Position numbers and translations under genes: made by a program. Source: Escherichia coli (GTDB lineage: Bacteria > Pseudomonadota > Gammaproteobacteria > Enterobacterales > Enterobacteriaceae). Taken from it: a stretch of 43,339 bases of DNA. Under the pieces are notes generated by a model. It saw only the letters and a program-made list of their open reading frames with translations. It was not told the origin of the DNA and searched no databases. Positions 32,559 to 33,941 of the stretch are shown here, one piece after another; position 1 is the first letter of the stretch, and each line of letters starts with the position of its first letter. The stretch lies in assembly GCF_003334315.1 (NCBI RefSeq), contig NZ_QOWR01000042.1, one strand, 5' to 3'.

Positions 32559-33941
32559 TCAACCTGCCACACTCCCCCACACCAGTTGCCCTTTATGGAA
32601 CGTTGCGGTTCTCGGCGAGATACGCGCCACCGCCTCGGCGGAACAGGAGGCGTCCACCAGCACAAAGCTGGCGTCATCCTGCGCTTTTGGCCATACACGC
32701 TCGCCTTTTTCATTCAGCGGCAATACATCGCCAGTGGCTAAAAACAGCGAGCGGGAGAGGTTCTGTTCGTTAGGACGAATATAGAGCTGCGCGTACAGAT
32801 TGGCTTTTTCCAGCATGTCGCCCAGACCATAAGGCGACCAGTGGTCGATAACGCTGTCAGTGCCAGTCATCACTTTTACGCCTTTGTCGTGCAACTGTTT
32901 GAGCGGCATATGCAGCGTGCCAATCGGCACCGTCGAGGCGATAGAAATTTGTTGCACCACCATCCGGTTCGCCAGTTCATCTACCTGTTGCTCGTTGAGC
33001 GTTGCCAGCGCAAAGGCGTGACTGATGGTCAGCTTGCCCTTCAGCTGTGGCGTTTTCTCTACCGTTTCAACCATATAATTGATGGCTGCCACGCCTGCCG
33101 GAGTGGTTTCGTGCAGGTGAATATCGACGCCTTTGTCGTAGTCCAGCGCAATCTGGAACATGGTGTCGAGGGATTTTTCCATCGCGCCATCAACACTGGT
33201 CGGGTCCAGGCCGCCGACGTAATGCGCCCCCGCCTGCATCGCTTCACGCATTAAAGGTTCAGATTTCGACAGCAGCAAACCGTGCTGCGGGAAGGCGACG
33301 ATTTCACACTCAAAGCCCGCCTGACGTCGCGCCAGCACCGCCTGCAAATTTTGCAGATTTTTCAGGCCGGAAACCGGTTCGATATTGCAGTGGCTGCGGG
33401 CAATGGTGGTGCCTTTCGACTGCAATAAATCAATCAGTTTTTCTGCCCGCTCCTGAGTGTACGGTTGCAGTTCCGGCAGCATTTTCTGCTCGAGTTTGAT
33501 CATGTCCTGGATGGTGGTGCCTGCCGGACGATTGAGCGAGCGCCACGGCCCGCCGTAAAAGGTTTTGTCGAGATGAATATGCATGTCGCGGGTGGTGGGC
33601 AGCATCAGCTTACCGCCAGCGTCATAGTGCGGCAGCGTGGCGTCCGGATGCAGCTTGTTCTCGCGCAGGGCGACAATTTTGCCGTCCTGAATCTCCACGG
33701 TCTGGCGCGCCGTGCGGGTCTGCACCGCCACGCCATTTTCGTAGTCAAAACCGGTTTCCAGCAGCACGTTATCGAGATAGTAATGCGGGTCAGTGATTTT
33801 CATGGTGTTGTTCGCTTCGCAGTTTAGGGTGCCAGCTACCGCCGCATGGGCGAGCGGCACAGAGGTACCAAACAGCGCGGCGGCGGTGACCATCTTACCG
33901 CTCTGGCTCAGAAATTCACGGCGGCTATTGCTTTCTTTCAT
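32559..33941 (-). CDS. yahJ: Tat-exported amidohydrolase (putative deaminase)
   Basis: 460-aa ORF with twin-arginine signal SRREFLSQSGKMVTAAALFGTSVPLAHA and metal-binding HIH (MHIHLD), the same family signature as codA. Confidence 0.85.
   Translation of the reverse strand: MKESNSRREFLSQSGKMVTAAALFGTSVPLAHAAVAGTLNCEANNTMKITDPHYYLDNVLLETGFDYENGVAVQTRTARQTVEIQDGKIVALRENKLHPDATLPHYDAGGKLMLPTTRDMHIHLDKTFYGGPWRSLNRPAGTTIQDMIKLEQKMLPELQPYTQERAEKLIDLLQSKGTTIARSHCNIEPVSGLKNLQNLQAVLARRQAGFECEIVAFPQHGLLLSKSEPLMREAMQAGAHYVGGLDPTSVDGAMEKSLDTMFQIALDYDKGVDIHLHETTPAGVAAINYMVETVEKTPQLKGKLTISHAFALATLNEQQVDELANRMVVQQISIASTVPIGTLHMPLKQLHDKGVKVMTGTDSVIDHWSPYGLGDMLEKANLYAQLYIRPNEQNLSRSLFLATGDVLPLNEKGERVWPKAQDDASFVLVDASCSAEAVARISPRTATFHKGQLVWGSVAG

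Follow-up and report, generated by a model that had tools for sequence, protein, structure and literature searches.

The window analysed here, a stretch of 43,339 nucleotides of Escherichia coli DNA, contains the yahJ gene on the minus strand (32559..33941), an ORF check giving exactly the coordinates of the initial annotation. The gene has an ATG start and encodes a precursor of 460 aa that matches its own NCBIfam subfamily, NF005312, with 713 bits and the Pfam families Amidohydro_3 and Amidohydro_1. E. coli chromosomes with 100% identity to the window DNA carry the annotations yahJ and yahI for these genes, and of 5426 complete E. coli genomes, 5036 contain at least 80% of a 2.6-kb yahI-yahJ query.

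The yahJ gene is the last one of an operon with the order yahD-E-F-G-(REP)-I-J. The preceding gene, yahI (33951..34901, minus strand), encodes a 316-aa member of the carbamate-kinase family without a signal peptide (NF009007, 650 bits; 38% identity to AllK/YbcF); yahJ starts 9 nt past the yahI stop codon, which is overlapped by an AAGGA sequence. On the other side of yahI there is a REP/BIME array ("yahH") (34951..35496, unstranded), with 5.9 copies of a 93-bp unit according to TRF and with Rfam naRNA4 matches. The minus strand further encodes a DUF1116/AllG-like subunit (yahG, 35509..36927; 45% identity to AllG/YlbE), an FdrA/AllF-like subunit (yahF, 36927..38474; 38% identity to AllF/FdrA; NF004760, 488 bits), a DUF2877/AllH-like subunit (yahE, 38464..39327; 25% identity to AllH/YlbF, E 2e-10), and, as the product of the first gene of the operon, an ankyrin-repeat protein recognised by its ankyrin matches (yahD, 39367..39972). 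Divergent from yahD, on the plus strand, yahC (40230..40727) is annotated as encoding a DUF1097 membrane protein, and yahB (40819..41751) encodes a LysR-type regulator whose nearest NCBIfam family by score is AllS (267 bits, cutoff 372; PunR, 238 bits).

A scan of positions 32100-40300 for promoter and terminator consensus sequences found no minus-strand sites and fewer sites than in shuffled sequences, and it was uninformative on the operon structure. An Rfam scan of the window and of five related clusters found no ligand-naming riboswitch, the only matches being REP-derived naRNA4, tRNAs, rRNA, and BsrF. Strain L001 has an IS1 element within yahF and an internal stop in yahK. The databases also hold YahI-YahJ fusion proteins (P0003-P0005, P0008), which we rejected as a natural architecture: they are E. 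coli sequences, 97-98% identical. They are single-member clusters and the length of three of them is precisely that expected from read-through, so that loss of the stop codon or an error in sequencing is their probable origin.

The N-terminus of YahJ (MKESNSRREFLSQSGKMVTAAALFGTSVPLAHA, followed after A-H-A by AVAG) has the organization of an export signal. The part coding for residues 1-33 (33843..33941, minus strand) comprises, according to the sequence and its hydropathy, an n-region, an RR motif, an h-region, and the A-H-A triplet. The codons of S6-R-R-E-F-L11 (33909..33926, minus strand) specify a twin-arginine consensus, as judged by the sequence and its conservation in orthologues. Residues 17-30 form an h-region without any charged residue that is moderately hydrophobic (mean Kyte-Doolittle about 1.6), directly followed by an A-x-A signal-peptidase site, A31-H-A33; the c-region, SVPLAHA, lacks a basic residue of the 'Sec-avoidance' kind. 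Under a strict as well as a loose rule, YahJ is the only one of the 81 window ORFs of at least 100 aa that has a Tat-like N-terminus.

We have compared YahJ with 74 full-length orthologues, collected from 80 genome loci of gamma- and alpha-proteobacteria and sharing 59-98% identity. All 74 keep the RR pair and the hydrophobic stretch, and the full S/x-R-R-x-F/L-L/I motif is kept as well. The RR pair is also found in 115 of 120 close database homologues, the exceptions being fusions, truncations, and one R-H variant. The mean column identity among the orthologues is 0.68 over residues 1-16, falls to its lowest value, 0.39, in the stretch between the A-x-A and the core, and reaches 0.85 in the core. 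In the AF2 model, pLDDT is below 60 for the first 50 residues and exceeds 95 from residue 51 on, where the core begins, and signal-less homologues of YahJ (up to 45% identity) are about 400 aa long and start at YahJ residue ~50. Those with 40-45% identity (P0130, P0133, P0136, P0137) lie in mixed contexts or on short contigs that gave no pathway clue. Since all the full-length orthologues keep the signal and the cytoplasmic homologues start near residue 50, the N-terminus of YahJ cannot be attributed to chance: it is a genuine export signal located outside the folded core. The initial annotation had described the twin-arginine motif, the hydrophobic stretch, and the AHA site, and had considered that the RR pair could instead belong to the mature enzyme; the elements are all there, at residues 6-11, 17-30, and 31-33, and the motif lies in the signal.

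The literature already records a Tat signal for YahJ, and so it is not new. YahJ is named among Tat substrates (PMC7549933; PMC3027627), and reporter fusions to its signal sequence (ssYahJ) reach the periplasm (PMC6788121). Together with the RR motif, the h-region, the A-x-A site, and their conservation, these fusions lead us to infer that native YahJ is periplasmic. It had also been proposed that the enzyme is exported folded and metal-loaded. A genuine export signal agrees with this, but ssYahJ, used as an export tag, is said in PMC6788121, citing Tullman-Ercek 2007, to work via both Tat and Sec, and thus export in the folded, metal-loaded state is likely, although it is not forced by the signal alone.

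The closest PDB sequences to YahJ are the AtzC-like protein 6nbo from Burkholderia multivorans (E 2e-43) and AtzC (E 4e-30), and then CodA; the corresponding Foldseek TM values are 0.89, 0.85, and 0.75. The alignments with AtzC and CodA place the first two metal ligands at H121-I-H123 (codons 33573..33581, minus strand). This is the HxH metal site previously noticed, and it turns out to be part of a complete mononuclear active site, the remaining residues being K126, Q219, H275, H277, E278, H308, D362, and W368, with roles taken from PMC4577212. All these columns, among them the metal ligands H121/H123/H275/D362 and the catalytic H308, are invariant or nearly so (alignment A1). The residues K65, Q160, H219, and W309 of the AtzC pocket align with K126, Q219, H277, and W368 of YahJ (PMC4577212), and hence four of the five residues of the full pocket (Lys65, Gln160, His219, Asn304, Trp309) are kept, Asn304 being replaced by Ser363. 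With a (beta/alpha)8 barrel fold and a complete predicted metal site, in which the H-x-H belongs to strand 1, the third His to strand 5, and the Asp to strand 8, the catalytic His following strand 6, YahJ is assigned, from its sequence and its model, to the mononuclear subtype III amidohydrolases of the CodA/AtzC cluster. We also considered YahJ as an orthologue of AtzC and rejected it, given the 22-28% identity and the change at Asn304; YahJ is AtzC-like in its predicted working, yet it is not an AtzC. The match of the active sites points to a deaminase chemistry acting on an amino-N-heterocycle. A deamination of the AtzC/CodA type leaves a cyclic oxo-compound rather than an open ureide.

The yah operon encodes together three subunits (FdrA/AllF, DUF1116/AllG, and DUF2877/AllH) and a carbamate kinase, and YahE, YahF, YahG, and YahI are paralogues of AllH, AllF, AllG, and AllK, respectively. 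AllFGH is the oxamate transcarbamylase, encoded in one operon with the carbamate kinase gene allK, and it is known to carry out the carbamoyl-phosphate-forming phosphorolysis with oxamate/oxalurate (PMC11326118). The papers on OXTCase and AllK make no mention of the yah paralogues. YahI scores 346 bits against the arcC family TIGR00746, just below its cutoff of 358, and its kinase core aligns with AllK from residue 1; because the N-terminus opens directly with this core, a signal peptide could not be accommodated. Signal peptides are equally absent from YahE, YahF, YahG, and YahD. The initial annotation had presented YahI as the cytoplasmic-type partner of YahJ, which fits a signal-less protein of a kinase family, but the partner is in fact the whole AllFGH-AllK paralogue, joined by an ankyrin protein and a regulator resembling AllS.

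The yahI and yahJ genes are adjacent in 41 of 76 loci, across many enterobacterial genera, and also in Pasteurella, and yahB is divergent from yahD in 38 loci. No other yah gene lies next to yahJ in 29 of the 76 loci, which come from alpha-proteobacteria, Photorhabdus, Xenorhabdus, and some Serratia, and the sole recurring neighbour in the alpha-proteobacterial ones is an unrelated LysR gene. An IS-flanked module with a permease gene and without yahJ is present in 142 E. coli genomes as mobile copies, and E. coli plasmids carry the module without any deaminase. The linkage of yahJ to the carbamoyl module is thus modular, not obligatory. Erwinia and Cedecea retain just yahB/yahD-yahJ, an arrangement that prompted us to consider a special YahD-YahJ partnership of the chaperone or Tat-hitchhiker kind. 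This was set aside because YahD-like ankyrin proteins go with the AllFGH-like module everywhere, even in clusters without a hydrolase. The yahD-yahJ pair would also remain if the segment from yahE to yahI were lost in one internal deletion.

Most relatives have a gene for a 516-aa permease between yahG and yahI, as seen in 29 loci. This position is occupied by the 546-bp REP array in the E. coli window, where we found neither the permease nor a remnant of it. The permease-less arrangement is common to E. coli, Kluyvera, Pseudocitrobacter, C. amalonaticus, and Raoultella, always with yahC; in fact, YahC (8 loci) and the permease (29 loci) never overlap, yahC being found only in permease-less versions of the operon. 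The permease is modelled as a 7+7 TM UraA-type fold, with a Foldseek probability of 1.00 to SVCT1, UraA, UapA, and AZG1/2, and also to SLC26/BicA, at TM values of 0.5-0.6. Searches with its sequence found no match in Pfam, NCBIfam, or the PDB, nor was there an hhalign match to YbbY, and the names 'xanthine permease' and 'AGZA family' given to it are source annotations only. The relatives' permease is predicted to have a UraA/SVCT/AZG/SLC26 fold, and its cargo may be a nucleobase or a small anion.

Outside the enterobacteria we have sampled nine clusters only. All nine encode ankyrin or ankyrin-TPR homologues and eight of them a carbamate kinase, and the Pfam names on homologous clusters are AllH, AllG, and HMA_AllF_N. 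YahD is 55% identical to the ankyrin protein of the Brevibacillus operon, and the Citrobacter and Brevibacillus permeases share 72% identity. In Brevibacillus and Neobacillus, the YahJ slot of the same operon is taken by a signal-less deaminase of the CDA fold, whose best PDB match is the guanine deaminase of B. subtilis (E 6e-31); these Bacilli operons with a cytoplasmic-type deaminase carry an extra transporter, which the YahJ-type operons lack. Pasteurella combines the module with a YahJ-like protein bearing SRRHFL, the Photobacterium cluster encodes an AstE-like hydrolase with a Sec signal, and the clusters of Janthinobacterium, Cardiobacteriaceae, and Paenibacillus have no hydrolase. The core of the module is the ankyrin protein, the AllH/F/G-like enzyme, and the UraA/SLC26-fold permease, to which an optional and interchangeable hydrolase is added.

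With moderate confidence, we propose that YahJ, exported to the periplasm as a deaminase of the CodA/AtzC cluster, feeds an imported compound to a cytoplasmic AllFGH-AllK-like module; the pathway fed by YahJ is probably paralogous to the last, ATP-yielding steps of allantoin breakdown. The first 33 residues would act as a cleavable signal of the twin-arginine type, and the mature enzyme, of about 46 kDa, would work in the periplasm with a mononuclear metal of the Fe2+/Zn2+ type and an AtzC-like substrate pocket. There, its most likely reaction would be the removal of an exocyclic amino (or alkylamino) substituent carried by an amino-oxo N-heterocycle, with ammonia freed outside the cytoplasm; a guanine-, ammelide-, or aminouracil-like compound is a candidate substrate. 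YahJ would in this way serve as a periplasmic feeder, turning an aminated precursor into a compound that the module imports and degrades. In the cytoplasm, YahE/F/G and YahI would form carbamoyl phosphate from a ureido compound and then turn it into ATP, CO2, and NH3. The feeder appears to be optional, since Bacilli swap in a guanine-deaminase-type enzyme and other lineages have another hydrolase or none.

A compartment-spanning pathway, with periplasmic hydrolysis followed by uptake and cytoplasmic carbamoyl metabolism, was the main suggestion of the initial annotation, and it holds in part. In its favour there are the export signal, the yahI-yahJ adjacency, and the in-operon permease of the 29 loci, which is what uptake following periplasmic hydrolysis would require. 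On the other hand, the linkage is not obligatory, the window locus has no permease, and the yah operon has no ring-opening gene to yield the ureido compound for the OXTCase-like enzyme. The metabolic hand-off from YahJ to YahEFG/YahI is what we infer from these data.

The permease-less state of the window locus could also mean that in E. coli the cluster is a decaying or cryptic remnant, with intact enzymes and an incomplete pathway, the compartment-spanning route existing only in relatives. We regard this as doubtful, although it survives best among the alternatives. The permease would have been lost without leaving a remnant, the REP array splits yahG from yahI, the lesions of strain L001 in yahF and yahK would be in agreement with decay, and the cluster is counted among the uncharacterised y-ome genes of E. 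coli K-12 (PMC11551758). However, the yahI-yahJ region persists in most complete E. coli genomes, and the permease-less form recurs, always with yahC, in four other enterobacterial groups. Moreover, expression and translation of the operon have been reported for EHEC (PMC4765031), and a yahJ deletion in ExPEC causes a small competitive defect (CI 0.70, p 0.02; PMC7549933).

It is unlikely, in our opinion, that YahJ is a stand-alone periplasmic deaminase, devoted to ammonia scavenging or to the detoxification of external base analogues, and that its place after yahI reflects only shared regulation or gene-order history. The solitary Tat-signal orthologues and the yahB/yahD-yahJ loci of Erwinia and Cedecea would suit such an enzyme, as would the deaminase-less modules of Janthinobacterium, Cardiobacteriaceae, and the E. 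coli plasmids, and no ring-opening step joins deamination to carbamoyl chemistry. Against it speak the gap of 9 nt between yahI and yahJ, an adjacency that extends from many enterobacterial genera to Pasteurella, and the deaminase of a different fold that takes the same operon slot in Bacilli, a replacement that would be difficult to account for if the functions were not linked.

Clearly improbable is that YahJ is exported in vivo mainly by Sec, crossing the membrane unfolded and acquiring its metal in the periplasm. In that case, the periplasmic location would be correct but folded, metal-loaded export by Tat would not. The dual use of ssYahJ by Tat and Sec described from reporter assays (PMC6788121, with reference to Tullman-Ercek 2007) and the c-region without a basic residue would allow it, but Sec targeting by itself would not select for RR, and thus the pair found in every orthologue, with the full motif kept, argues against Sec-only export, as does the only moderate hydrophobicity of the h-region. 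There is also a precedent in the Tat-dependent export of PA2699, an Amidohydro_3 protein of the P. aeruginosa exoproteome, although it is YtcJ-like, belongs to another subfamily than YahJ, and has no link to carbamoyl metabolism (PMC4899797). Finally, a vestigial, non-functional RR motif and a cytoplasmic YahJ that acts after uptake, as the signal-less Bacillus counterparts do, would be simplest if the 72% identical permeases of Citrobacter and Brevibacillus import one compound, but this is very hard to sustain against a complete and strictly conserved tripartite signal, followed by a variable linker and lying outside the folded core, an isolated ssYahJ that is export-competent (PMC6788121), and the extra transporter that accompanies the cytoplasmic deaminase in Bacilli and is missing from YahJ-type operons.

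Returning to YahJ as a periplasmic feeder of the module, we suggest tentatively that the yah-type gene set may represent an ATP-yielding route, widespread and so far uncharacterised, for an N heterocycle resembling guanine or ammelide. Proteobacteria would perform its ammonia-releasing first step in the periplasm (YahJ via Tat; in Photobacterium, the Sec-exported AstE-like enzyme) and Bacilli inside the cell, at the cost of a second transporter. If true, the arginine-deiminase and oxamate pathways would gain a new counterpart in this route, which would also be a clear case of one catabolic module whose first step is periplasmic or cytoplasmic depending on the lineage. The cluster makes up one dense block of uncharacterised E. 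coli K-12 genes (PMC11551758), and the paralogy with the recently identified oxamate transcarbamylase and its kinase, the AtzC-like pocket of YahJ, and the guanine-deaminase-type replacement in Bacilli turn a 'putative deaminase' into a concrete experiment. The small fitness defect of the ExPEC mutant hints at a relevance in the host (PMC7549933). Existing ideas are not overturned, and the Tat signal is old knowledge.

Among known enzymes, AtzC, the N-isopropylammelide isopropylaminohydrolase of Pseudomonas sp. ADP, has the same mononuclear H-x-H, H, D site as YahJ, and the pocket residues common to both are, in AtzC numbering, Lys65, Gln160, His219, His249, and Trp309. Besides the low identity of YahJ to AtzC and 6nbo and the Ser363 that replaces Asn304, YahJ differs in its 33-residue Tat-type signal and its linker of about 17 residues, AtzC having no signal peptide, and in a genomic context of carbamoyl metabolism, not of atz genes. 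The window also encodes the cytosine deaminase CodA (codA, 17610-18908, minus strand), which belongs to the same superfamily cluster and whose metal ligands Q156, H246, and D313 show conservation. It shares 26% identity with YahJ, which has His277, Lys126, and Ser363 in place of CodA Glu217, Thr66, and Asp314, that is, the AtzC pattern; CodA is cytoplasmic and partnered with the CodB permease.

AllFGH-AllK, from anaerobic allantoin degradation under the activator AllS, resembles the yah set in having a transcarbamylase-type enzyme followed by a kinase (PMC11326118). AllF, AllG, AllH, and AllK share 38, 45, 25, and 38% identity with YahF, YahG, YahE, and YahI, respectively. The gene order is E-F-G in yah and F-G-H in all, and the allFGHK operon lacks the ankyrin protein, the exported deaminase, and the in-operon permease of the relatives, all three of which belong to the yah module. 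Oxalurate itself is unlikely to be the substrate of the yah module. In the arginine and agmatine deiminase pathways, a deiminase, a catabolic transcarbamylase, and a carbamate kinase work together with an antiporter, the enzymes being all cytoplasmic. By analogy, the yah set would follow the same logic, in which a hydrolytic removal of NH3 leads to phosphorolysis to carbamoyl phosphate and to ATP formation by carbamate kinase, with a transporter of its own, although, carbamate kinase excepted, the proteins of these pathways are not homologous to the yah proteins.

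The yahJ gene lies in the lac-cod-prp-yah region of E. coli. A 2.6-kb query around yahJ was 100% identical to E. coli chromosomes annotated with yahJ (amidohydrolase family), yahI (carbamate kinase family), and yahH, and at least 80% of this yahI-yahJ query was found in 5036 of the 5426 complete E. coli genomes. On the minus strand, yahD (39367-39972), yahE (38464-39327), yahF (36927-38474), and yahG (35509-36927) are followed by a REP/BIME repeat array ("yahH"; 34951-35496), yahI (33951-34901), and yahJ (32559-33941; 460 codons), with yahC and yahB divergent from yahD and yahK downstream of yahJ. 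The ATG of yahJ is 9 nt past the yahI stop codon, which is overlapped by an AAGGA sequence. The array yields two long artefactual ORFs of 185 and 203 aa (the old yahH) plus six Rfam naRNA4 matches, and ribosome profiling in EHEC reported translation of an ORF at its position (PMC4765031).

Gene order was compared in 76 loci carrying a YahJ orthologue. The yahI gene is directly upstream of yahJ in 41 of them, and in 29 of those 41 a 516-aa membrane protein, hereafter the permease, is encoded between yahG and yahI. There the window instead has a 93-bp REP unit repeated 5.9 times, and no permease remnant was found. The E. coli-type order without permease occurs in 10 loci (Escherichia, Pseudocitrobacter, Kluyvera, C. 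amalonaticus, Raoultella, and a Klebsiella MAG), and all eight of them with an available upstream flank carry yahC instead. Only yahD adjoins yahJ in 6 loci (Erwinia, Cedecea, and others), and in 29 yahJ stands without any yah neighbour (alpha-proteobacteria, Photorhabdus, Xenorhabdus, and some Serratia), the alpha-proteobacterial ones having an unrelated LysR gene directly beside yahJ. In seven Enterobacter and Lelliottia loci (L020, L021, L023, L024, L027, L028, and L036) the AllH-like yahE is missing, leaving a gap of about 140 nt from yahD to yahF with the rest intact.

Searches of Pfam, NCBIfam, and PDB sequences gave no match for the permease, which data sources name xanthine or AGZA-type. 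Its model adopts the 7+7 UraA/SVCT/AZG/SLC26 fold, and thus it could carry either a nucleobase or a small anion. The protein (7461-9011 in the L007 locus, and in 28 other loci) is unusually conserved across phyla, the Citrobacter and Brevibacillus proteins being 72% identical. The DUF1097 membrane protein YahC (40230-40727 in the window; also in loci L004-L006, L014-L016, L033, and L034) occurs in 8 loci versus 29 for the permease, with no overlap, and could be a replacement transporter or a mere lineage marker. A second, IS-flanked module, ordered LysR-ankyrin-AllH-FdrA-YlbE-permease-carbamate kinase, was detected in 142 of the 5426 E. coli genomes, mostly on plasmids (106 plasmid copies), as in L083 (IncF plasmid) and L084 (chromosome) from other strains; all copies end before any yahJ.

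Among the alternatives, the weightiest is that the E. coli pathway is cryptic and incomplete, in line with the missing permease. In E. coli strain 720632 (L001), IS1 interrupts yahF and yahK has an internal stop, so the yah locus is dispensable in at least some strains. On the other side stands an ExPEC yahJ deletion, which slightly reduced competitiveness (CI 0.70, p 0.02; PMC7549933).

The initial annotation had paired YahJ with the cytoplasmic-type kinase YahI. The pairing holds in that the two genes are often adjacent and no signal peptide was found in YahI, nor in YahD, YahE, YahF, or YahG, but the set of partners is wider (YahE/F/G, AllFGH-like) and YahI is not the sole relevant one. YahF, YahG, and YahE share 38%, 45%, and 25% identity with AllF, AllG, and AllH, respectively, and YahI shares 38% with AllK; the best family match of the divergent regulator YahB is AllS. 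Work published in 2024 established AllFGH as the three-subunit oxamate transcarbamylase that converts oxalurate into oxamate and carbamoyl phosphate, encoded in an operon with the catabolic carbamate kinase gene allK (PMC11326118; PMC9843812); the yah genes are not mentioned there. Compared with AllF, YahF is shorter by 40 aa, whereas YahG exceeds AllG by 53 aa, and YahG residues 8-52 (36774-36906) match the final 45 positions of the model for the FdrA/AllF family, indicating a shifted F/G subunit boundary. Such a shift would fit with F and G belonging to one complex.

Outside Enterobacterales, a small sample of nine clusters was found via the permease. All nine contain a YahD-like ankyrin protein (sometimes TPR-fused), AllH/F/G-like genes, and the permease, and eight encode a carbamate kinase within the stretch read, the exception being Photobacterium. 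In Brevibacillus and Neobacillus, a signal-less 150-aa CDA-fold deaminase (best PDB match B. subtilis guanine deaminase, E 6e-31) comes right after the kinase, and a second transporter is present. Pasteurella has a YahJ-like protein with SRRHFL; Bosea, a signal-less AtzC-like amidohydrolase on the opposite strand; Janthinobacterium, Cardiobacteriaceae, and Paenibacillus, no accessory hydrolase in the cluster. The Photobacterium cluster encodes an NCS1 transporter and an AstE/AspA-family hydrolase (L097, 15098-16225) with a Sec-type signal peptide (MKNIAIALSLFTAFSGSVMA), a second, unrelated exported hydrolase attached to the module. YahD, whose E. coli and Brevibacillus versions share 55% identity, accompanies every AllH/F/G-like plus permease cluster examined and is fused to a C-terminal TPR-like domain in some lineages (homologues at L085 2403-3011, L094 10685-11917, L096 3399-4571, L097 10571-11839, and L098 10603-11964).

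Most likely, the core module would import a compound and convert a carbamoyl group first to carbamoyl phosphate and from there to ATP, while an optional feeder hydrolase would widen the range of usable precursors. YahJ would be the proteobacterial feeder, placed in the periplasm so that the same permease could take up its product, whereas Bacilli would deaminate inside the cell, with an extra transporter. No operon gene is assigned to ring opening of the deaminated product. We infer the hand-off from YahJ to the module, a linkage that is not obligatory; YahJ as a stand-alone periplasmic deaminase, suggested by the loci without yah neighbours but opposed by those with yahI adjacent, is the second-weightiest alternative. 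The pathway spanning two compartments that had been envisaged, with periplasmic hydrolysis, uptake, and cytoplasmic carbamoyl metabolism, is thus partly supported: its outline agrees with the export signal and the permease between yahG and yahI, but the E. coli locus lacks that permease and the linkage is not obligatory.

The N-terminus of YahJ is MKESNSRREFLSQSGKMVTAAALFGTSVPLAHA|AVAG. The annotated SRREFL (residues 6-11), hydrophobic stretch (17-30; uncharged, of moderate hydropathy), A-H-A site (31-33), and HxH pair (H121/H123) are correct in every detail, as is the ORF, and of the 81 ORFs that reach 100 aa in the six frames of the window, only YahJ has such an N-terminus. The RR motif and hydrophobic stretch were found in 74/74 full-length orthologues (80 genome loci, 59-98% identity, gamma- and alpha-proteobacteria), and RR in 115 of 120 close database homologues, the exceptions being fusions, truncated entries, and one R-H variant. 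The least conserved part of the protein runs from A-x-A to the conserved HYYLDNV with which the core opens. Distant homologues (at most 45% identity; about 400 aa) start at YahJ residue ~50, and the AlphaFold model (pTM 0.85) has pLDDT <60 at residues 1-50 and >95 from residue 51. Together, these features mark a functional signal peptide rather than a motif lying inside the mature protein. In rare E. coli database entries (P0003-P0005 and P0008; 677-780 aa), YahI is fused to YahJ, which would bury the signal peptide; three have the exact length expected for read-through of the yahI stop and the 9-nt spacer, and they are probably mutations or sequencing errors.

The Tat signal of YahJ was already known: the protein is on Tat-substrate lists for E. 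coli/Salmonella comparisons (PMC3027627) and ExPEC (PMC7549933), and its isolated signal, ssYahJ, serves as an export tag (PMC6788121). Passages of the latter, citing Tullman-Ercek 2007 and Fisher 2008, describe periplasmic translocation and recognition by both Tat and Sec. This dual recognition would fit export mainly by Sec, the third alternative in weight, against which the conserved RR speaks; a non-functional signal, the fourth, is very unlikely. No report was found in the literature on native YahJ that covers its localisation, metal, or activity.

YahJ scored 713 bits against its own NCBIfam subfamily, NF005312, and far below cutoff with cytosine-deaminase models. The closest solved proteins by sequence were the AtzC-like 6nbo (E 2e-43), AtzC, and CodA, and fold comparison gave the same order (TM 0.89, 0.85, and 0.75). 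H121-I-H123 lies in the first barrel strand, and the metal ligands H121, H123, H275, and D362 are, like the catalytic His308, invariant or almost invariant. Pockets were compared using the AtzC alignment and the roles that the AtzC structure paper assigns to residues (PMC4577212). Lys65 and His219 of AtzC, which distinguish it from CodA (Thr66 and Glu217), correspond to Lys126 and His277 of YahJ. Gln219 and Trp368 are also kept, and Asn304 of AtzC is the sole differing residue compared (Ser363 in YahJ). YahJ would therefore act like a deaminase of the AtzC/CodA cluster, with a pocket predicted to suit an amino-oxo heterocycle, although it is only 22-28% identical to AtzC and not an orthologue. 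CodA itself is encoded in the window (17610-18908, minus strand), a cytoplasmic paralogue with 26% identity and without the N-terminal extension. The value of these results is that a y-ome cluster becomes experimentally approachable. Its uncharacterised pathway belongs to kinds already known, namely those of the AtzC/CodA-type deaminase, the AllFGH-AllK-type module, and the Tat-exported hydrolase.
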